Shown here one piece after another: positions 3,777 to 55,800 of a stretch of 64,000 nt of DNA. The position numbers and the translations under genes are program-made. Source of the DNA: a virus. Position 1 is the stretch's first letter; every line of letters begins with the position of its first letter. The notes beneath the pieces are model-generated. The model made no database searches. It saw only the letters and a list, made by a program, of their open reading frames with translations, and was not told the origin of the DNA. The stretch lies in the IMG/VR virus record IMGVR_UViG_3300042901_002277. The stretch is one strand, 5' to 3'.

Positions 3777-3903
3777 TGAATACTTTACAACACTGGATAC
3801 CAAATTTCCAAAGTGCGACTGGCCACCCCTGCGCCTTCAAGAGCGTGGTTTAAGCCCCGCGTATCAACTGGCTTGAGTATTGGAATGCCGGGGCTATCTG
3901 ACT

Positions 3904-3938
3904 AAAAAGTCGAGCAACCGATTGGCTGCCCGACTTTT
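3904..3938 (-). terminator. intrinsic terminator
   Basis: AAAAAGTCG...CGACTTTT hairpin. Confidence 0.65.
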
Positions 3939-3941
3939 GTT

Positions 3942-4118
3942 TCAGTCGATTTGGATTTTGTCAAACACTTCGGCTCGAGCATTGAGCATCGCCCAATGAA
4001 AAGCGTCCATGAAAATCTGCTGCTTCTCTGCCGACCGAAACTCTCGCTCGGCGTGGGCCCGAGCCTCGGCGGTCTTAACCGCCAAGAGCCCGACCCACCA
4101 GTTGGCCTTCTCGTTCAT
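3942..4118 (-). CDS. hypothetical protein
   Basis: Start MNEKAN overlaps upstream stop (ATGA). Confidence 0.55.
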   Translation of the reverse strand: MNEKANWWVGLLAVKTAEARAHAEREFRSAEKQQIFMDAFHWAMLNARAEVFDKIQID

Positions 4119-4375: not shown

Positions 4376-4628
4376 TTTCCTTACGAGACCAATACTAGTA
4401 CACCCGATACCAAATTTCCAAATTCAAACACAGCCCCGCAAAAGTTTTTTTCATTTAACATACAGATGACATACAGGTAACATACAAATTTTCAGCAGCA
4501 GAAGGGTATGCGGGGCTATTTTGGGCAAAAAATAAACCACACCAAAACTCTACGCAATTTGAAAGGGGTAAAACGCGGAGTAATGGTGTGGTTATTTATT
4601 AGTAGGTATTTCTACCCACTAAAACTTG

Positions 4629-4919
4629 CTACACAATACGAGAGTGTAGTGGTGTCTCAATGTAGATGGTAGGTCGGTCTGAGAACTTGTCCTCAAATAC
4701 TCCGAGCAAGTATGGTGCTACTTCCTCGTTGTACCCATCTGCGATACCGCAAGCCTGTGACTTGGATAGACATGGTAGGTCACGGTAGAGAAAGTCTGAA
4801 CCATCTCCAGTTGGTGACTGAAAGTAAATGCGTACTGCCCATTCTGTAGTTACTCCAAACTCTTTCATGAGTTGTTTTACTACTTCGGCACTAACAATAG
4901 AACCTTTTCCCGATTTCAT
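4629..4919 (-). CDS. hypothetical protein
   Basis: Start MKSGKG coupled to upstream stop. Confidence 0.55.
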   Translation of the reverse strand: MKSGKGSIVSAEVVKQLMKEFGVTTEWAVRIYFQSPTGDGSDFLYRDLPCLSKSQACGIADGYNEEVAPYLLGVFEDKFSDRPTIYIETPLHSRIV

Positions 4920-6170: not shown

Positions 6171-6312
6171 GCCTCAAATTTACAACATGAGATACCAAAT
6201 TTCTAAAATCAAGAGGGGTCGAATGGACAAGATGAGCTGGCCGCCTTTCGCAATCAGTAGCCCCGGCTATCCGGTAATCCAGTAGGAGCGGCGGGGCTGA
6301 TGAAAAATTTTA

Positions 6313-6348
6313 GGGGTGTAACAAGGTTTTATTCCCTGTTACACCCCC
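6313..6348 (-). terminator. intrinsic terminator
   Basis: GGGGTGTAACA...TGTTACACCCC hairpin. Confidence 0.6.
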
Positions 6349-6770: not shown

Positions 6771-6881
6771 GTCTTTATGGGTTAGCCCCGGTATACCGGC
6801 AGACTACGACGGGGCTTTGCTCTAGAAAGAGAGTGTTACCGTTTCTGGTAACACCCTCTTTGATTATGGTGAGCCAGCTGG

Positions 6882-7139
6882 CTAGAGCGAGCTCGCCATG
6901 CGACAGGTCTTGCGATACTGGCCTTTGGCAGCCTCAATCATGAGAGCCCATGCAGCCTCGTCAGGGCAGACAGCGAGCACAAGCAGCTGGAAGTTCTCCA
7001 TGCCGAAATTCTTGTGAGTGCGGCGAGCCTTACGGAGTGCTGCGTCTTGGGGGTTCTTGGTAGCAGCGTCAAAAATATACAGCTGCTCATAGACAGACGG
7101 GTCAAACCCGTCAGACCAAAGGATACGGACAGTGAACAT
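6882..7139 (-). CDS. hypothetical protein
   Basis: Start MFTVRI after GAAAGGGG. Confidence 0.6.
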   Translation of the reverse strand: MFTVRILWSDGFDPSVYEQLYIFDAATKNPQDAALRKARRTHKNFGMENFQLLVLAVCPDEAAWALMIEAAKGQYRKTCRMASSL

Positions 7140-10840: not shown

Positions 10841-11079
10841 CCAAGCCTCATTGCGCCAATTGTTTGGTTAGTTTCACCAAGTGTCTTGCCAGCCGTATTG
10901 TTTGTGACGGCAACCCGAGCGTCAAGGTTATTGAGTATGACCTGAACTTGGTCAAGTTTCCGATTTATTTCCTCAACCGAGTTCATTACCGACTTCATTG
11001 CTTGTTCTAAAGATGCTTCTATTTCCATATCGCCTAGCCTAGCAAGTATGATGAGCAAGTGCGACTTTACCTTGACCAC
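10837..11079 (-). CDS. coiled-coil hypothetical protein (start uncertain)
   Basis: Heptad pattern; probable start MEIEAS. Confidence 0.4.
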   Translation of the reverse strand: MVKVKSHLLIILARLGDMEIEASLEQAMKSVMNSVEEINRKLDQVQVILNNLDARVAVTNNTAGKTLGETNQTIGAMRLG

Positions 11080-12981
11080 GACTTATTAGCCCTTGACTTT
11101 CCGTATGACCCAGCACAAGTTGCTGAAGTCAAGTCAATAGCCGGGGCTACATGGGACAAGGTGGACAAACTTTGGAAAGCACCCGTAGCCTCAATTGACG
11201 AGGTGCGAGCATTTGCTATGAAGCATGAGTTTCAGATAACAGACGAAGTGCTTAGGTTTACAGCCCCAAAGAGAGCGTCACGAAAAGGCGTTTATCTCAA
11301 AGGCGACTGGACTTACATCCAATTCCCTTACGACAAGGTTGTGCTCAAAGCAGTAAAGCAAATAGCAGGGGTTACTTGGGATAACAAAGAGATGGCATGG
11401 AGAGCGCCACTCACCTCAACATCTGAAGCAATTGCGTGGGCTAACTCGTTTGGGGTGCTTGTATCGCCCGAAGTACACGGTGTATCTGCCTCGATAACCA
11501 AGAAACTAGATGAACTAAAGGAAGCCTCACGCTCAACTGACGCTGATATAGAAGTGCCTTCACTACAAGGAACGTTATTGCCTTACCAAAGAGCAGGCGT
11601 GGAGTATGCGTCTAAAGCCCGTAGAAGTTTTATCGCTGACGAGATGGGACTTGGAAAGACGATACAAGCGATAGCGACACTGGAATATTCGTCAAAAGAT
11701 AGCGAAGTGTACCCAGCAGTAATTGTCTGCCCCCCTTCACTTGTACTCAACTGGAAGTCAGAGTGGAACAGATGGTTGCCTAACAGGAGGGTTGCCGTTG
11801 TGACCAACCGTAGAGACATGCCAGAGCCCCGTTCGTATGATGTGCTCGTTGTCGGCTACTCAAACATCTCTCACTGGGAAAAGCAACTACTTGCGCATAA
11901 CTCTTATGTATTTGATGAGAGTCACTACGCAAAAAGCCCAACGGCACAACGTACTAAGTCGGCTATAAAGATGGCAAAGAGCGCACCTAAACACGGGATA
12001 GTCCTATGCCTCACTGGGACACCCGTAACGAATAGACCAGCAGAGTACGCCAGCCAACTAGACATAATCGGGAAACTGAAAGAGTTTGGTGGGTTGTGGG
12101 GATTTTATAGAAGGTATTGTTCAGCCTTCCAAGATAGGTTCGGTCAATGGAATATCAGCGGTCACTCGCACCTTGATGAACTAAACGACAGGCTTCGTGG
12201 TACTTGCTATATAAGACGAACTAAGTCGCAGGTACTTACAGAACTCCCACCGGTTATACACAGCACCCTTGTTGTTCAGGGAACTGATGCGGGGCTCAAG
12301 GAGTATCGTAAGGCAGAACAAGACATAATAAAGTACATAACCGACAGAGCAAAAGAGATAGCAATAGAACTCGGGGAGAGCCCGTACTCGGCAGCCGTTG
12401 TGGCGAGAATAAAAGCAGAAAGCAACGAACACCTCGTCAAACTGTCAGTACTTAGACGGCTTGCTGCGAAAGCCAAAATGCCAATGGTTGAGGAGTGGGT
12501 GCAGTCACGCATTGATGATGGCAAGAAAGTCGTAATCGCAGCGCACCATAGAGACGTTGTAGATGAACTCGCACGAAAGTTTGGCAACCTTCGCATTCAG
12601 GGCGGCATGTCGGTTGAGGAAGTGGAAGCACAAAAGGCACGCTTTCAGAACGAACCCGTAGAGACAGCGCCCGTCATTGTGTTGTCTATTCAGGCAGCCA
12701 AGACTGGTCACACACTCACAGCCTCACAAGACATACTTTTCGTAGAACTTCCGTACACGCCAGCAGACCTAGACCAAACTTATTCACGCCTTCATCGCAT
12801 TGGTCAGACTGGAAGCGTTACGACTACTTACATGCTGGTTGACGGGACTATTGACGAGGAAATCTATGCGCTCATAGAAAAGAAGCGCAAGGTAGTGAAC
12901 GCTTCGGTTGAGGGGGGAGAGTTCGCAGCAGGTGGTAACGCAACGCAGTTGGTACTTGACTTGCTCAACAGACATCGATAG
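11059..12981 (+). CDS. SNF2-family (HARP/SMARCAL1-like) helicase
   Basis: ADEMGLGKT, DESH, TGTP, SRLHRIGQ; two N-terminal HARP-like repeats; leaderless (TATGAT 6 nt before GTG). Confidence 0.92.
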   Translation: MRLYLDHDLLALDFPYDPAQVAEVKSIAGATWDKVDKLWKAPVASIDEVRAFAMKHEFQITDEVLRFTAPKRASRKGVYLKGDWTYIQFPYDKVVLKAVKQIAGVTWDNKEMAWRAPLTSTSEAIAWANSFGVLVSPEVHGVSASITKKLDELKEASRSTDADIEVPSLQGTLLPYQRAGVEYASKARRSFIADEMGLGKTIQAIATLEYSSKDSEVYPAVIVCPPSLVLNWKSEWNRWLPNRRVAVVTNRRDMPEPRSYDVLVVGYSNISHWEKQLLAHNSYVFDESHYAKSPTAQRTKSAIKMAKSAPKHGIVLCLTGTPVTNRPAEYASQLDIIGKLKEFGGLWGFYRRYCSAFQDRFGQWNISGHSHLDELNDRLRGTCYIRRTKSQVLTELPPVIHSTLVVQGTDAGLKEYRKAEQDIIKYITDRAKEIAIELGESPYSAAVVARIKAESNEHLVKLSVLRRLAAKAKMPMVEEWVQSRIDDGKKVVIAAHHRDVVDELARKFGNLRIQGGMSVEEVEAQKARFQNEPVETAPVIVLSIQAAKTGHTLTASQDILFVELPYTPADLDQTYSRLHRIGQTGSVTTTYMLVDGTIDEEIYALIEKKRKVVNASVEGGEFAAGGNATQLVLDLLNRHR

Positions 12982-13031
12982 CCCCGGCCTATCGTTTTAG
13001 AAATTTGGTATTTGGCTTGCTAAGCTTGCGT

Positions 13032-13248
13032 TGCCGCAAGGCACGAAGCGAAAGGGGCAAAAGAAACTAGGTATTCCTCCTGCAGGGGGCTTTATTAACG
13101 AAGTCGGCATGGCGACCGACAGGCCTAGGTTCTCCCTCTAGCCGAGAGAAGGCAAGGATACGCGAGGTGGCGTGTGTACACACGGCAGCCAAAAGGCAGT
13201 GCCCGAAAGGGACGCTTGAACCATCTCGCTAAGTCCTTGCTCTTTTTT
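13032..13248 (+). ncRNA. highly structured ~215-nt non-coding RNA candidate
   Basis: Own conserved promoter (12995, -10 TAAGCT at 13021), no credible ORF, nested helices, GNRA loops, terminal U6. Confidence 0.7.
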
Positions 13249-13265
13249 CGGTTTTGTGGCGGGGC

Positions 13266-13688
13266 TTACTCGGCTTCTTTGGTTGGGACTCTGCCCATCA
13301 GTTCGTCAGCAATTAGTTTTGCGTACTTTCTGCGCAGTTTCCAGACTTTTTGGTTCATTTCAGCCATTGCGTCAGTCGTTCGTGCCTTCTTTATGCTGTC
13401 GCTGTCAAACACGCCGTACTTCTTGAACAAGATGTCGTCAATGTCATTGTTTTCTATCATTATGTCCGTAATCCAATGGCCCCGCTTGTCAATGCTAAGC
13501 AGAAGTTCGCAAAGACCTTCAAATCCGAACTCGTTATAGACACGATTGGTAACTAAGTCACAGAAATGCGCACGATACATCGTTTCTGCTTCAGCGGTGT
13601 GGCTCATAAACTCACTCAGCCATACGGCAAGCTCTTCTTTTGACGGAATATCGCCGTCTTCACTGTCAAACTCAAAGTCGTCTTCCAT
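13266..13688 (-). CDS. hypothetical protein
   Basis: 140 aa ORF with RBS. Confidence 0.65.
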   Translation of the reverse strand: MEDDFEFDSEDGDIPSKEELAVWLSEFMSHTAEAETMYRAHFCDLVTNRVYNEFGFEGLCELLLSIDKRGHWITDIMIENNDIDDILFKKYGVFDSDSIKKARTTDAMAEMNQKVWKLRRKYAKLIADELMGRVPTKEAE

Positions 13689-16832: not shown

Positions 16833-17122
16833 AGTGCGTACTCTCCACGCTTACGGCGATAGTGCGATACGAATTCGTCACTGTCATAGTCACAAGGTGA
16901 CCACACTATGTCGGCTTCACTAAAGGTATGGTCAAGGTGCAGACGGACTATCACATAGTCAAAGGCGTCGTATGCGTTGTCAGCGATGAACCTGATGCAA
17001 CCTACGAGGGTAGAGCGATACTCAAAGTGTTCAGGTAAGTCATAGCGACACATACTCCAAGCGTCACCATACGAGGGACACTCAACCACTGCGTACCTGC
17101 GTCGGTCTTTCTCGATAGTCAT
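16829..17122 (-). CDS. hypothetical protein, leaderless
   Basis: ATG of MTIEKD 6 nt after -10 of promoter 17143. Confidence 0.6.
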   Translation of the reverse strand: MTIEKDRRRYAVVECPSYGDAWSMCRYDLPEHFEYRSTLVGCIRFIADNAYDAFDYVIVRLHLDHTFSEADIVWSPCDYDSDEFVSHYRRKRGEYAL

Positions 17123-17270
17123 AGGGCAAGTGTACCTAGTGTGATACCAAATTTCCAAAGACGGACTACCCGTATGTCACCCGTGCGCCTTGCGTCAGTC
17201 ATACTCTCTCAACTTCAGTGCGACATAGATGAGGGCGACACCTGCTAGGCACATCAACTCAAGCGCTGCC

Positions 17271-24495: not shown

Positions 24496-24956
24496 CGGTG
24501 ATTATCGGTAACGTTACGGCGGAACCAGAACTCACCTTCACATCAAACGGACAGGCACGCCTGTCATTTTCAGTAGCTGCAAACTATGTTTGGTACGACC
24601 AGGCAGGCGAAAAGCAGGAAAAGGTTTCCTTTTTCAACATCGTCGCATGGCGCTACACAGCCGAGAATGCTGCAAAGACACTGGAAAAGGGAATTGGTGT
24701 AATCGTAACAGGACGCCTTGAACAGCGTTCATGGGACGACAAAGAGACAGGCCAAAAGCGTTCAACAGTCGAAGTTATTGCAGATGAAATTGCAATTAAC
24801 ACTCGCAGTGTTGAAACTGTTGTCCGTCGCACCAAGCAGGACGGTGGTCAAGCGCAGGGCGGTTCATCCGCTCCGGCACAGCGCCGCTCAAAGCCAGCAG
24901 CATCAAATCGTCAGCCAGTAGGCGTTGGCGTAGATGGTGAATCAGAACCATTCTGA
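24480..24956 (+). CDS. ssb: single-stranded DNA-binding protein
   Basis: IIGNVTAEPEL, GRLEQRSW, acidic C-terminal PF. Confidence 0.95.
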   Translation: MNPAPTVIIGNVTAEPELTFTSNGQARLSFSVAANYVWYDQAGEKQEKVSFFNIVAWRYTAENAAKTLEKGIGVIVTGRLEQRSWDDKETGQKRSTVEVIADEIAINTRSVETVVRRTKQDGGQAQGGSSAPAQRRSKPAASNRQPVGVGVDGESEPF

Positions 24957-24975
24957 TTCTTGCCCTTTAAATAAA

Positions 24976-25023
24976 TAAAACCCTCGTTAATTTCGTGCAG
25001 AGACGCGAAGACGAGGGTTTTTT
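24976..25023. terminator. bidirectional intrinsic terminator
   Basis: AAAACCCTCG...CGAGGGTTTTTT between convergent genes. Confidence 0.7.
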
Positions 25024-25208
25024 TATATCCTTTTTAAACCATGCAGTATTTTTGTAAGTTCATCGCCATCAAACGGAATTGCATAAGCGTCGACATAGTT
25101 TTTGGCATCCAACAGCATGTCTATGACTTCTGCCACTGGGACCGAAGACTTAGGGTCTTTAACTAATTGACCTGAAAGCCTTTGTAGGTGGGTTTCTATA
25201 GAGTCCAT
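25023..25208 (-). CDS. hypothetical protein
   Basis: 61 aa. Confidence 0.5.
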   Translation of the reverse strand: MDSIETHLQRLSGQLVKDPKSSVPVAEVIDMLLDAKNYVDAYAIPFDGDELTKILHGLKRI

Positions 25209-25318
25209 GAGTTAAGTATAAACACAAAAAATATCCTTACAGAGGTTGTCAATGCATTTTTTAGTTATTAATATCTAAGTCAACCTACAAATAGACGGAC
25301 ATAAAGGAGTTATTACTA

Positions 25319-25528
25319 ATGTCTGAATACAATAAACTCAAGAACAGCGGCCTTGGTCGTGGTCGTCCAAAACTCAATGAAGAAGAGCGCATTTTGCGGA
25401 AGCAGATGAACTCAGTGCGCCAAGAAGCTCGCAGACGAGCGCATCTTGTGCTTCAGCATCGTCATCAGGATGAGTACAATAAGATTTTTGAAGAAGAATT
25501 CAAATCTCTTAGCAAAAAGAGCCGTTAG
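25319..25528 (+). CDS. small DNA-binding protein with AT-hook
   Basis: GRGRPK; strong RBS. Confidence 0.65.
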   Translation: MSEYNKLKNSGLGRGRPKLNEEERILRKQMNSVRQEARRRAHLVLQHRHQDEYNKIFEEEFKSLSKKSR

Positions 25529-25627
25529 TTTTATTTCTGCTCCTGGAAGTCTTTATCGACTTCCGGGGGCGGAACATCATGAACTAGTTCGCCAGTTTTA
25601 AATCTTAGAATAAGGGGCGGAGGTTCT

Positions 25628-25828
25628 TCAGGGGTACTCAATGTTGCCACTTTTCATTGAGCCTCTACCCTTTTTTGAGGGCTTCATAACTTTTGACTTT
25701 GATTTTCCATATTGAGATTCTAACCATTCGTCAAAGTCGTCTACTTCTCCCTGGCTTGAAATCACATATTTTTCGTATTGTTTTATAAGCCCAACGAGCT
25801 CGTCGTCTTCTTCGTCAAATCTTGGCAT
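25628..25828 (-). CDS. hypothetical protein
   Basis: 66 aa. Confidence 0.55.
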   Translation of the reverse strand: MPRFDEEDDELVGLIKQYEKYVISSQGEVDDFDEWLESQYGKSKSKVMKPSKKGRGSMKSGNIEYP

Positions 25829-37968: not shown

Positions 37969-38502
37969 CTAGCCAGCGTCAACAATCATGTGAATCCTAT
38001 GAGTGGAGCCGCCATTGTCAACCTTGTGGACTCTGTTTGTGTTATCTATCACCCAAATCTCCCCTGGTTTTAAATTCTTGGAAATGCCACCAACCGTAAA
38101 AGAACATAGACCGTTTGTAACAATTGGTATGTGTATTCTGTGGGTGTTTCGGTGCACCACCCCCTGGTCTTTGTGTGGTTTGATAATCCCACCAGGGTTC
38201 ATCCTTGTCAACATTGAGGACTTTTCCGACACTTGACCGATGTGTTCTCTGGCGATTTCGCAGACTTTCATTATATCCGAACTGAATTGTTCGTAATGTT
38301 TGTGTTTTTCTGGACTTGAGTCATTTGACTTCGGAGAATACTTCAACGGGATTGTCTCGGTGTGGTAGCTGGCTTGCCCCATTGTGTTTTTTCTACCCTC
38401 ATATTCACTCCAATCTAGGTCATTGAAGGATAAAACCTTATTCAATAGGTTTTGAAAGTCGGGGAAAACTCCAATATACCTAAATGCTTCATTTTCTTTC
38501 AT
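37969..38502 (-). CDS. aspartyl/asparaginyl beta-hydroxylase-like 2OG-Fe(II) oxygenase
   Basis: IKPHKD, RIHIPIVTN, HKVDN...RIHMIVD. Confidence 0.85.
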   Translation of the reverse strand: MKENEAFRYIGVFPDFQNLLNKVLSFNDLDWSEYEGRKNTMGQASYHTETIPLKYSPKSNDSSPEKHKHYEQFSSDIMKVCEIAREHIGQVSEKSSMLTRMNPGGIIKPHKDQGVVHRNTHRIHIPIVTNGLCSFTVGGISKNLKPGEIWVIDNTNRVHKVDNGGSTHRIHMIVDAG

Positions 38503-38518
38503 GAAATCATCCTGTATA

Positions 38519-38557
38519 AAAAAAGAAACCCCCGGTTTTTAGGCCGGGGGTTTCTTG
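38519..38557 (-). terminator. intrinsic terminator after capsid gene
   Basis: AAGAAACCCCCGG...CCGGGGGTTTCTT + U-tract. Confidence 0.85.
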
Positions 38558-38576
38558 ACTTACTTTTTGACTTTGA

Positions 38577-39953
38577 TTATGCGCCTGGTGCAGCGTCAAA
38601 ATCAATCGAAACGAACGCTTCTGGACGCTTAACAGCGAGAGCAAGTCTCTGTTCTGCAAGAATCACGATTGCGTTGCGCACGAAGAAGTCTGAGTGCTGT
38701 TCCGAAATTCGGATTGAAGCCTGCTCGCGGTCGTACAGCTGTGCAGCAGTACCGAAGGCACCGACGAGGCCGGTTCCTTCTGTCATTGCTGGAGTGTCGA
38801 TAACTGGCATTCTCCAAACGCGTGGCTCGCCACCCATTGCAACCGAAACTGCGATGAGGTATTGACCCTGCTCGTCCTTCGTCAACTCGATGTCTTCCCA
38901 GTCGTTCGGGTGCAATACAACGCCCGATGGCTCGTAGTAAGCCAAGAACGAGAGTGTTGCAGCGCGACGAATTGCATCAGCCTTGGTGTCTGCTACTGGA
39001 GCAGTTGCACCGTCTGACCATGCGTATGTCTGGATGTTTGGTGTGTTCAAAACGCCCAAGAGGTTCTCGCCAGCGCCATCGCCGTTAAGAATTTGGTTGT
39101 CTTCCAACAAACGAAGGCCGTACATCAATTCGTTGTCGATGATTGAACGCAGCTGTGGCTCATCGGCAAGGACGTTGCGGTGTGCAGCTTCCCAGTGTGC
39201 CAATGTGCGAACAGGAGCCTGCTCACCAACGAATGAGAATGATGACTGTGGCTTCAACGCAAATGCGCTGTTTCCACCGTTACGCTCTGCAATTGTTGAT
39301 GCTGAGTTAACACCAGCAGCGTAGCCGTAACCCTCCTGGATAGGAGTGGTGAAGCCGAGCTGACGGAAGTACTCAATAACAGCAGCAGTTGTTGTGCGAA
39401 CTGGGAACAAGTCACGAACACGCTTGGTGCGCATTGGCTGTGTAATCATCGCATCGCGCTGTACTGAACCAAACGAGCCAAGACGGCTGTTTGCTACGTC
39501 AGTTCCAGGGATTGCTGAGTAAACATCCTTTACGTTGTATGAACCAGATGTGAATGAAGCCTTTACCTGCCATGGTGCAACCATGTTTGCGCCGTTGCGG
39601 CCGTTTGCGAGGGTCTTGAATTCTGCTGAGTCCAAGAACATTTCGCCGATTGACTTGATTTCACGGCTTGAAAGCTGTGCAACTTCTGCACTTGCTGCAG
39701 CGAATGAACCTGCAACACTCTCAGCTGGCTGTGAAGCCCAAGAATCAACGCTGTTCATCGTCTGCATACCGTCGATGAGGCTCTTGATTTCCTTGATGTC
39801 TGACATGTTCTTGTCGAACGCTGTCTTCTGCTCAGGGGTGACGACAACTGTGCCGTCTTCTACACGGAATGAATCCGCAATGGCCTTATTATCGGCCATC
39901 TTTCCACGAAGTGCACCTTGCAGTTCGTTTAATCTTGAATTGTCTTGCGACAT
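38577..39953 (-). CDS. HK97-fold major capsid protein
   Basis: QILNGDG, VLHPNDW, GQYL, FVRNAIVILAEQRLALAVKRPEAF; N-terminal delta/scaffold region. Confidence 0.95.
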   Translation of the reverse strand: MSQDNSRLNELQGALRGKMADNKAIADSFRVEDGTVVVTPEQKTAFDKNMSDIKEIKSLIDGMQTMNSVDSWASQPAESVAGSFAAASAEVAQLSSREIKSIGEMFLDSAEFKTLANGRNGANMVAPWQVKASFTSGSYNVKDVYSAIPGTDVANSRLGSFGSVQRDAMITQPMRTKRVRDLFPVRTTTAAVIEYFRQLGFTTPIQEGYGYAAGVNSASTIAERNGGNSAFALKPQSSFSFVGEQAPVRTLAHWEAAHRNVLADEPQLRSIIDNELMYGLRLLEDNQILNGDGAGENLLGVLNTPNIQTYAWSDGATAPVADTKADAIRRAATLSFLAYYEPSGVVLHPNDWEDIELTKDEQGQYLIAVSVAMGGEPRVWRMPVIDTPAMTEGTGLVGAFGTAAQLYDREQASIRISEQHSDFFVRNAIVILAEQRLALAVKRPEAFVSIDFDAAPGA

Positions 39954-52815: not shown

Positions 52816-55800
52816 TTAACGTCTACTTTTCGAGTTGTCGTGAAGTCGGAGAAGACTTGTCCATTGAGTTGGAGACAGGAACCCTTGTGCCTTGAATTGC
52901 GAAACAAGGCTTTGAGCGAAATTGCTCCACGTGGCATTTTCTGCCCAGCCCATTATTTCATTTTGCATTCTTGGGGTTATGTTCTCTGGGGCTCCGTTGT
53001 TCTTGCGTCCAGATGCAAGCTTTTCAACTGCTTCCTGTCCGGTGTTGGATATTCTGCGAGCAGCTCTTCTTCCGCTACTCAACGAACCACCACTCTTAAT
53101 TGACTCAACCGTCTCGTCGGTGTCGAACATTGTGTTAAGTCTGTCAACTATTACCTGAACTTCGTCATCGGAATAACGAAGTGCTTTTCCAGTGTTTTTA
53201 CTGAATTTTCCTTCTTTTCCTTCTTCGAAAGCCTTGAGTCTTGTTTGGACCTTGGTTGCTCCAATCACTTCGTCAAGTTCTCTACCTTTTACTCTTTTGC
53301 CTCTTCTGGCAAGAGTGTCGGTGATGTTTTTCCAAAGGTCGAATTGTCTAATTGAGTTGTCAAACTTAACTCCCTCTTCACCGAATACGTCTCCAGCGCT
53401 TGGGATTATGCCCTTGTCGACAAGTTGCTCAATAATGGATGTCGGAACTCCTTCTTTTTTCCATTTTTTAAGCTGTATTGCAGTTGGCTTAATCTCTTCA
53501 CCGTCAACCTCAAACGTAATGGCTTCTGCTAGGTCGTCATCAGACTCAACTCCGAATGATTCTGCAAGGGCAGAAACGGGGAAGGCGCTCTTTGAAACTT
53601 CTCTAGCAACAAACTCCTCAGGAAGCTCGAAATCTATTGGTGCGTAGAGGGGGTACATCGCTATACCCTCTTCTTTGTAGTCCTCGTATTCTGCTCTGCT
53701 TAGCTGATTACCTCTACGACGGTCATACCAGTAAGGAGCTGCATCGAAGCCCCAAACTGCCTCAAGCGTCTCGTATGACCTGCCTGGGTCTCTGCCGTTA
53801 AAGAATGCCCTGTCGATAAATTCGTAAGCGTCTATTTCAGAAATACCCGCCCCATCTTGGAACATCTTTTCAAGTTCTATCTCGCTTACGCCAAGGAATT
53901 TTGCACTCTGCTCCCTGTCTAGTGGGTTCCCGTCTTCGTCCCTAAGAATTTGCTCGAGTTTTTTAGCGTCAAGCATCCACTTACCATCTGGTGACCTGTC
54001 GTTATTCCCTGACATTTTGCCAAATTTTATTTTGACTTTGTCCTGAAGGTAATTGCCGACACTGTTTCTGGTCTCGCTGTTAGGGAATCTGAGTCTTCCA
54101 GAGCTGAGTCGGTCGGTACCAAATTCATCTTTGCTTGGTCCTGGTCGCCTCTTGCTTGGGATAGTTGCTGCTCTTTGTCTTACTCCGTCAGCGAATGCCT
54201 GTCTATCGGCATCCGCCATTGGGCGACGCTTTGAGCCTTGAGTTCTATTTCTTCTACCAGAAGAAAACTCTGCTGCATCGCCTTCAACCATATCGAAGTT
54301 AGAGAGGTTCCTAGGAGAAAAAACATCATCAGGAGTTCCCGTAATATCTTCTCTGTCTATGGCCACTCCATTGTCTTCAAAGAACGTCTGAGTGCTAAAA
54401 AGGTCGCTCAGCTCGTCTTCAAGACCATTTACGTTCTTGACGTACAAATCTCCAAGCTTTGATGCAAACTCTTGTGGAGTCAAATCTCCACGGTCTGCAG
54501 AATCGATGAGTTCTTTTATTTCGGCAATTTGCTCTTCGTGGGTAACCGTGGAGAATCTGTCTTCTACGTCGTCAATTTCCTCGAGTGCATAGATAATGGA
54601 GTCTGCGTCAGATTTGATTAGGTCAATAGCTCTTTCGTTGTCCCCATCGGCAAGGTCTATATTTCTCTCCATCGCTGATTCGAAATCAACTGGGCCTGGA
54701 ATGTCCCTTGCCCCCATGCGAGTTGTGGTTCTGAAGGCATCTTCTAGTTCAGAAATGCTGCCCTTCATGTCCTCAATCTCGTCATTTAGTCCAGAGAGGG
54801 TCTCTTCTGTACGTCTCAATTCATCGTGAATTCTGTCTATCGCATCGTCGATGTCCACCAGCAAATCCATCTCATCTTCTGCAACTGGCGCATATTTGTC
54901 AATTTCGAAAATAGACGAACCGGCAGGCATTCTCTTGCCATCAAGCAAGGAACGGAGCAAATCATTTCTTAGAGCGACAAGTCGGTCGAGAGATTGAACT
55001 GCTTCGGCGTGGTCTTCAAGAGGGATTGTTACGCGGAACTCACCTTTTTTCTCTGTTCCAAGCCTTCCGCCAAAAGCATTTTGTACAACCATGCTCTCGT
55101 ATCGAGCGTCGTCCTCAATCTCCGCACGCACTTCATCAAGTGGTCTGATTCTCCCAGAACTCAATCTGCCTGAAGTGACATTTCTTGTTCTTTGCGCCCT
55201 GGCACCAGGGGTGCCACGTGGAACACCTGGTTGTGTCGGGTTGTATGGAGCATCCGCGCCGTCAACTAGTCCCTCAATCTTGTGGAGACTGTAACTTCTG
55301 TACTGACCTTGGTCATCGTCAAGACCTACGACATATATGCCGCCGCCTTTTTTGGCCATCATTCCAGTTGGGTAGATGGTTCTTGGCTTTCCGCCGTACG
55401 TGAATGAAACGCTTTCACCGTTCCTGCGTATCGAGTCAAAATCGTACTTATCAGCAGGCACAGGGGCTAATCGAGAAGCGATGTATCTTGAGTTTGAACC
55501 AGCTTCATCCGTTCTCTTAAGAGCATTCGATACTGTGCCAATTGTTTCTACTGGAGTTTCGTCGTATCTTGAGCGAACGCCAGATGAAAGCCTGCCATTT
55601 TCTCTTGCAAGCTCCATCCGAATATCGCTGGCCTCATCTGCCCAGTCTTCTGCGCTCCATTCAAGACGTGATTCATCAATCTCCGCAATCATCCGCGTGT
55701 ATTGCTGCCTGTCGTAACGTTCGTTCACAATCCTTATGGAATCTTGATACTCTGCGTCTCTGCGGGCTGTTTCTTCGTCAAGCATGCTTGATATTTTTTC

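Follow-up and report, generated by a model that had tools for sequence, protein, structure and literature searches.

A covarying, ORF-free structured RNA in a hyperplastic cassette slot of a phage, absent from Rfam 15

Orphan structured RNA motifs that are followed by intrinsic terminators have been described in several instances, among them DUF3800-I, drum, FuFi-1 as well as skipping-rope (Weinberg et al. 2017, PMC5737381), and a large comparative screen of viral contigs has yielded 10,006 unnamed structured-RNA candidates with covariation (Fremin, Bhatt, Kyrpides 2023, PMC10690425). T4-type phages offer a comparable system of a different kind in their promoter-early stem-loop (PeSL) cassettes (Arbiol et al. 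2010, PMC2839356; Comeau et al. 2014, PMC4122927). Here we analyze a putative RNA gene located in a stretch of 64,000 nucleotides (nt) of viral DNA, referred to below as the window, which is part of the IMG/VR record IMGVR_UViG_3300042901_002277, a complete phage of 160,449 bp with direct terminal repeats. A role is known for only a few of the structured RNAs that phages encode, and the cassettes of early regions are usually seen as stores of small proteins. At this locus, a covariation-supported RNA of ~190 nt replaces small proteins in a hyperplastic slot, and it recurs behind an unrelated promoter in a second group of phages.

Like the motifs of Weinberg et al., the RNA has a highly conserved fold of multiple helices with a Rho-independent terminator at its 3' side, and it is not placed, as a riboswitch would be, in front of one particular gene. 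It differs from them in that it has no sequence or structure match to any of these motifs in Rfam and no associated protein domain, in that it resides in arrays of phage early-gene cassettes, and in that one of its alleles lacks the terminator. The setting resembles that of the PeSL cassettes, since repeated early promoters and G/C-tract stem-loops at gene ends occur in hyperplastic regions whose cargo is inserted, deleted or replaced between close relatives; in the phage analyzed here there are about 20 promoter copies and boundary stem-loops, and the cargo of the slot is one small open reading frame (ORF-A), another (ORF-B), both, nothing, or the RNA. However, PeSL cargo consists of ORFan protein genes whereas here it is an RNA, the promoter consensus is different, and the phage is, by what was seen, not T4-like. 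It is possible that the viral screen has already listed the motif among its 10,006 candidates, none of which carries a function that would explain it.

In our view, the unit probably represents an allele of a family of structured phage RNAs, ~180-190 nt long, that has not been described before; with more reserve, we suggest that the RNA acts in trans as a folded molecule. Its fold is conserved and covarying, and the RNA is ORF-free, single-copy, movable between slots and absent from Rfam 15. An earlier reading based on the letters of the window only (the sequence-only reading) had proposed a stand-alone, ORF-free, structured phage RNA that belongs to no known family, and this proposal appears to hold, being supported by the Rfam negative, by compensatory changes and by unconserved reading frames. 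At gathering scores, an Infernal search of the window against Rfam 15 returned only four transfer RNAs (tRNAs), all of them elsewhere in the window, and nothing for the unit; at E ≤ 10, the region itself gave one chance-level match and the second allele described below gave none. A tRNA, a tmRNA or a tRNA-like element was rejected, as neither ARAGORN nor the Rfam tRNA model detected a cloverleaf. The only Rfam model that aligned to the 3' domain of the RNA was DUF3800-VII (RF02967); in both, the closing helix is long, CAG comes after an internal hairpin, and there is a U-run. This candidate was also rejected, because it scored 16.8 bits against a gathering threshold of 36.2 (E = 1.8) and included several non-canonical pairs. 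RF02967 gave no match genome-wide and none in the second allele, and no DUF3800 (PF12686) gene was found in the 160-kb genome, while control genomes did match.

The homologues on which this view is based are invisible to DNA word searches. Comparisons of the region by blastn and tblastn with phage and plasmid collections revealed no homologue, exact and degenerate DNA patterns gave only two A-rich chance matches in viral, metagenome and genome collections, and a covariance model built on the single sequence (R1) found nothing further in the phage's own genome and 28 related records. They were reached by way of mis-called ORFs in protein databases, by translating the open frame 13028-13138 and searching 1.8 billion representatives with phmmer. 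One match, P0016, is a 'protein' of 141 amino acids (aa) that is in fact a mis-called ORF over a second allele of the RNA; two others, P0017 and P0018, were set aside as GFINE-type repeat proteins, which are chance matches inflated by repeats and not relatives. Allele 2 (contigs L130-L132) is located in the same slot as the window's allele (allele 1), flanked by a helicase with an apparent intein and by a neighbour protein that is 83.6% identical. The helicase of this phage (L130:1-2550) has 934 aa versus 640 aa and a weak Intein_splicing match, which suggests that the gene is the same one in a version that carries an intein. The nearest relatives of the allele-2 phage have empty slots.

When the RNA-covering part of P0016 served as the query of a protein search, two further mis-called ORFs came up, P0029 and P0030, through which two more alleles are seen, and P0029 in turn led to a third allele in DNA, present on six IMG/VR contigs (L155-L160) that represent a second phage group. 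Model R1 matches these contigs over its full length, with 111 bits and E = 1.5e-27. On either side of allele 3 there is a copy of another repeated promoter, CSGGAAYKTAWAATGRT, which occurs 7 times in 5.4 kb versus 0 expected; the allele lacks the U-tract, and the next promoter begins at the end of the RNA. The RNA is preceded, then, by two unrelated repeated promoters in two phage groups. In the second group (L155:2105-5297), the copies of CSGGAAYKTAWAATGRT are all on one strand and head an array of small-gene units parallel to that of the window. Moreover, in P0029 and P0030 the gene that follows the RNA is in each case yet another one, and therefore the RNA is not tied to any neighbouring gene. 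A model built on the three alleles (R2) detects one copy in this genome and one in each of the six allele-3 records, and none in 17 other related records. An intermediate reading, according to which the unit was an orphan remnant plus a branched terminator, was overturned by alleles 2 and 3.

The alleles allow the proposed fold to be judged by the way it has changed. Between alleles 1 and 2, identity is 79-86% in the flanks, where third codon positions agree at 56-59%, and 57% in the -35 half of the promoter. Within the predicted transcript there are 6 differences in 185 positions outside one patch, 13184-13216, which itself has 13 differences in 34 columns, and the high identity stops at the U-tract and not at the next homology anchor. 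The three stem substitutions found in allele 2 are all compatible with pairing. We aligned the three alleles with MAFFT without regard to structure (alignment A5) and tested a structure of 45 pairs in seven helices. Standard pairs occupy 98.5% of the pair cells, and 8 of the 45 pairs, distributed over P1, P3 and P4, have changed on both sides; none of 500 shuffles matched the observed counts, and slid controls gave 0-2. Compensatory pairs thus exceed the controls across three alleles, as they do in conserved structured RNAs, and the collection of homologues with a covariation check, which the sequence-only reading had proposed, has uncovered such changes in three helices. In P3, GUCGG/CCGAC has become AGUGG/CCACU around an unchanged loop, CAUGGCGA, and another compensated change converts GGCAAGGAU/GUCCUUGCU into AACGGAGAU/GUCUCUGUU. 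P2, P5, the stem of hp1, the loop of P3 and the CCC-GAAA-GGG core are invariant across the three alleles. In hairpin hp2, P0029 reads LAKP where allele 3 reads LPKA, and the Pro and Ala codons suggest that GCC/GGC has been swapped for GGC/GCC in P0029. When folded alone, each allele adopts the same predicted topology, and the plus strand can be assigned to the RNA because G-U pairs are conserved in all alleles and the minus strand folds less strongly. Covariation among the three alleles does support both predicted domains.

The behaviour of hairpin hp1 deserves separate mention. Alleles 1 and 2 have GUAC in its loop (hairpin at 13171-13184) and allele 3 has GGCC (hairpin at L155:2608-2621), and a perfect palindrome of 14 nt is kept in both forms. 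At this place the translation of P0030 agrees with alleles 1 and 2, and that of P0029 with allele 3. Since a hairpin cannot pair its own tetraloop, the palindrome hints at loop-loop dimerisation or at a site that may be used at the DNA level, a hint that rests on one event. The possibility that hp1 is a repeated operator palindrome was discarded, because hp1 is unique in the genome.

Compared with shuffled sequences, the whole unit has z = -4.1 on the plus strand and -1.6 on the minus strand. For the 3' domain (13150-13242) z is -5.5 to -6.0, none of 300 shuffles being as good; its minimum free energy (MFE) structure makes up 52% of the ensemble, the ensemble diversity is 1.8 versus 18.3 in shuffles, and its folding ranks 13th of 26,726 windows genome-wide. 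The minus strand of this domain also folds (z = -3.2). Thermodynamics alone is ambiguous for the unit and would not support the 5' domain. All hairpins named by the sequence-only reading were recovered in the MFE fold, although two of them take on a different meaning. The hairpin UUCUC/GAGAA is present in the sequence and in that fold, but it is not conserved and sits in the variable linker. The first hairpin, UGCC-GCAA-GGCA, is likewise present but is part of a 5'-untranslated region (5'-UTR) that is shared by the cassettes of the slot, including protein-coding ones; among these cassettes it covaries, one of its pairs being seen as G-C, C-G and A-U, with 93% of the cells paired. The size of ~215 nt given in that reading would be that of the predicted transcript in this phage, while the conserved core spans ~180-190 nt (13063-13241). 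The features of the locus are collected in Table 1.

Table 1. Positions of the features of the RNA unit and of its slot in the window
Feature	Position	Strand	Remarks
Stem-loop CGATAG-CCCCGGC-CTATCG	12976-12994	+	End of helicase gene; overlaps TAG stop and AGCCCCG; slot/cassette boundary, outside the conserved RNA
Promoter of the phage's repeated type	12997-13026	+	TTAGAAATTTGGTAT (12997-13011), 9 nt, -10 TAAGCT (13021-13026); predicted transcription start near 13033
5'-UTR hairpin UGCC-GCAA-GGCA	13029-13046	+	GCAA loop; common to protein-coding cassettes of the same slot in relatives
Relic Shine-Dalgarno sequence GAAAGGGG	13050-13057	+	Start codon absent behind it; weakened to GAAAGGGA in allele 2
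5' domain, three-way junction	13063-13132	+	Covariation in P1 and P3; same fold predicted independently for allele 3
P1	13063-13072 with 13123-13132	+	2 pairs changed on both sides
P2	13076-13080 with 13085-13089	+	Loop UGCA; helix and loop invariant
P3	13103-13107 with 13116-13120	+	Loop CAUGGCGA invariant; 3 pairs changed on both sides
Pyrimidine-rich linker	13133-13150	+	Variable between alleles; holds the UUCUC/GAGAA hairpin
3' domain	13151-13241	+	P4 and P5 close the junction of hp1, hp2 and hp3
P4	13151-13159 with 13233-13241	+	Both sides changed in 3 pairs, one side in 3
P5	13162-13170 with 13221-13229	+	Invariant
hp1	13171-13184	+	Stem invariant
hp2	13188-13197	+	Stem swap suggested by P0029
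hp3	13199-13215	+	Core CCC-GAAA-GGG, invariant
U6 tract	13243-13248	+	Predicted intrinsic terminator with P4 in alleles 1 and 2; absent in allele 3
Heptamer CGGGGCT	13260-13266	+	Overlaps stop of the convergent 140-aa gene; slot boundary

The sequence-only reading had described a promoter that points into an interval lacking a credible ORF and ending in U6. Each of these elements was found where it had been placed: the promoter motif is enriched in the window, no believable frame lies behind it, no start codon follows the Shine-Dalgarno (SD) sequence, and the U6 tract directly follows the last helix, P4. The motif TTGGAAATTTGGTAT followed by TANNNT has 24 matches in the window versus 2.4 expected; about 20 good copies fall within 1-17.8 kb, only two of them on the plus strand. 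In 17 of the 20 copies, an SD sequence, a start codon and an ORF follow within 40-140 nt, the copy of the RNA unit being an exception. The transcription start near 13033 is predicted because one promoter copy drives a leaderless gene at 17144 whose ATG lies 7 nt after the -10 box, and this distance was applied to the RNA unit. At that locus (17107-17158, minus strand) the -10 box is TACACT, and the arrangement suggests that mRNAs without a leader are translated by the host. Such mRNAs are common in Actinobacteria. The nearest isolate relatives of the phage's helicase are found in Arthrobacter phages, at ~34% identity.

With its own promoter, no ORF, and a stem followed by U6 in alleles 1 and 2, the unit has the layout of a stand-alone small RNA (sRNA) gene in sequence. 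Transcription from the repeated early-type promoter would yield an RNA that begins near 13033 and carries, in this order, the 5'-UTR hairpin inherited from the cassette, the 5' domain with its three-way junction (P1-P3), the variable linker, and the 3' domain, where P4 and P5, each of 9 bp and stacked on one another, would close a junction of three small hairpins. Termination by P4 and U6 at ~13248 would give ~215 nt, and we infer that a stand-alone RNA of about this length is transcribed early in this phage.

The unit fills a gap of 284 nt between a gene for a SNF2-type helicase (11059-12981, plus strand) and a convergent gene (13266-13688, minus strand) whose 140-aa product has no Pfam or PHROG match. 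The state of this slot in relatives was surveyed in 56 viral loci with helicases that are 57-98% identical, and in further loci reached through the 140-aa gene (in viral contigs and metagenomes) and through exact-protein look-ups. In about 100 related contigs the slot holds either of two small ORFan genes, both, or none. In the ORF-A state, the promoter, the 5'-UTR hairpin and an SD sequence precede an ORFan of 58-62 aa; the ORF-B state has the same leader in front of an ORFan of 73-75 aa; in a third state, ORF-A and ORF-B are arranged in tandem. No family was found for either of them. Empty slots are of two kinds, having either a solo AGCCCCGG (L006, L007 and L029) or TAGgTTA without the heptamer (L133 and L150-L153). 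Counting the RNA, the slot has at least five states in close relatives (L002-L153). The slot is hyperplastic, and the RNA is an independent module that takes the place of small ORFan protein genes or of nothing.

The survey also changes the meaning of the two heptamers by which the sequence-only reading had bracketed the RNA. AGCCCCG (12980-12986) and CGGGGCT (13260-13266) are indeed present at these positions, but both overlap the stop codons of the flanking genes, TAG at 12979-12981 for the helicase and TAA at 13266-13268 (minus strand) for the 140-aa gene, and the heptamer is absent from fully empty slots; they mark the slot and not the RNA. The existence of two kinds of empty slot indicates, therefore, that the AGCCCCG...CGGGGCT pair arrives with the cassette, TA flanking it on both sides. 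At least 13 contigs carry the window's exact neighbour protein, and in the three of them that were fetched (from JGI and ENA) the 284 nt of the slot are identical, so the sequence is not an assembly artefact. Samples in which the phage is present are JGI 3300042399 and 3300044533 and ENA ERZ28008667 and ERZ27280282.

How might the RNA act? As a folded molecule it would act in trans, binding a host or phage protein early in infection as a scaffold or decoy. We regard a protein-binding scaffold or decoy as the most likely form of trans action, although we put it forward tentatively, because whole helices and loops do not vary in sequence, other helices persist only through compensatory changes, and the genes next to the RNA are not conserved. 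The functions named by the sequence-only reading (decoy, scaffold or ribozyme) are conjectural. A more elaborate version, to which we give limited credence, is that the RNA and the ORFan genes compete for promoter-flanked early slots, the RNA serving host takeover or counter-defence as a decoy or scaffold, perhaps as a dimer formed through the self-complementary hp1 loop. Several observations weigh against these proposals. The trans-acting, protein-binding mechanism is itself reached by inference. Only three DNA alleles are available, so that the independent events are few and mostly separate allele 3 from the other two. The patch 13184-13216 is nearly identical in alleles 2 and 3, which suggests that allele 2 may be a mosaic; the argument that this patch had drifted neutrally is weakened by such near-exact sharing. 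Cassette shuffling could explain part of the identity between alleles 1 and 2 by recent transfer rather than by selection. The RNA is dispensable, as close relatives do without it. Finally, the 5' domain alone has no thermodynamic signal (z ~0), and the other loci at the top of the genome-wide ranking are ordinary cassette terminators of the phage, long simple hairpins that equal the 3' domain in folding strength.

Other explanations appear less likely to us than a scaffold or decoy. The RNA could be a base-pairing regulator of the antisense type that would bind mRNAs of the host or the phage through conserved single-stranded stretches, with the 3' domain as stabiliser and terminator; the candidates for pairing would be CUUUAYUAAC at the junction of P2 with P3, the loop CAUGGCGA, or the linker rich in CCUC. 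A promoter of its own, the lack of an ORF and an intrinsic terminator make up the layout of a classical sRNA, the unpaired segments have been conserved across the three alleles, and C/U-rich stretches are partly complementary to the phage's GAAAGGGG ribosome-binding sites. However, no complementarity of more than 12 nt to the phage's own genome was found, the linker is the least conserved part of the RNA, and the invariant helices and compensated stems suggest that shape matters more than a seed, so that we consider a base-pairing role unlikely. Somewhat more doubtful still is a purely cis-acting element, that is, an elaborate and partly bidirectional terminator, an insulator, or a module for transcript stability between cassettes, with no function in trans. 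P4 with U6 would make a good intrinsic terminator between convergent genes, the minus strand folds as well (see above), and the other inter-cassette terminators of the phage are equally strong in folding. Yet those terminators are simple hairpins, some convergent slots lack any terminator, and the 5' domain is conserved and covarying in spite of its distance from the terminator; moreover, allele 3 keeps the whole fold by compensation although it has no U-tract and the next promoter follows directly.

That the unit is a mere passenger of cassette shuffling, a mobile, promoter-flanked module that is neutral or selfish and whose conservation reflects recent transfer, would fit its patchy distribution, the fact that the nearest relatives of both carrier lineages hold other cargo or empty slots, and the independent assortment of promoter halves and cargo. 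It is nevertheless improbable, since selection on the fold is needed to account for compensatory changes and unvarying loops in two phage groups whose promoters differ, and the boundary of identity coincides with the end of the predicted transcript. A small protein gene, finally, is barely credible. It would encode 36 aa from a TTG at 13031, or correspond to a frame of 63 aa that allele 3 has open. In frame 0, no stop occurs between 13028 and a TAG at 13139, just before the terminator stem; this frame also stays open through alleles 2 and 3, and it has been called by gene callers. The conserved small ORF that the sequence-only reading had named as a possible explanation of the region was looked for, and stop, frame and codon-position pattern all speak against it. 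The SD sequence lacks a start codon behind it, the frame-0 stop TAG is CAG in allele 2, and the alleles differ by an indel of 1 nt. In the only open frame, alleles 2 and 3 differ at 12, 12 and 14 of 59 first, second and third codon positions, respectively, whereas the flanking genes differ at 6%, 2% and 41% of these positions; this even spread indicates, therefore, that the unit is not coding. In addition, multi-nucleotide, radical codon changes coincide with paired positions, and there is no protein homologue beyond the mis-called ORFs. As for the folded RNA that we favour, its compactness, clear helices and invariant loops make it suited to synthesis, probing, use as bait, and the building of a new Rfam family.

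Some further observations concern other parts of the window. Folding just as extreme as that of the RNA unit is also found at 24937-25029 and 25476-25665 (plus strand), 38473-38613 (both strands) and 54176-54365 (minus strand), mostly as long perfect hairpins that resemble terminators, and 24957-25630 is a gene-poor stretch of ~670 nt with two terminator-like hairpins. The inter-cassette regions at 3853-3945, 4537-4629, 6253-6345 and 6790-6900 (minus strand) combine a simple terminator hairpin of 12-15 bp with an AGCCCCG-spacer-CGGGGCT stem, and a loop in 4537-4629 (minus strand) displays UUUUACCCCUUUCAAA, a sequence complementary to the ribosome-binding site GAAAGGGG.

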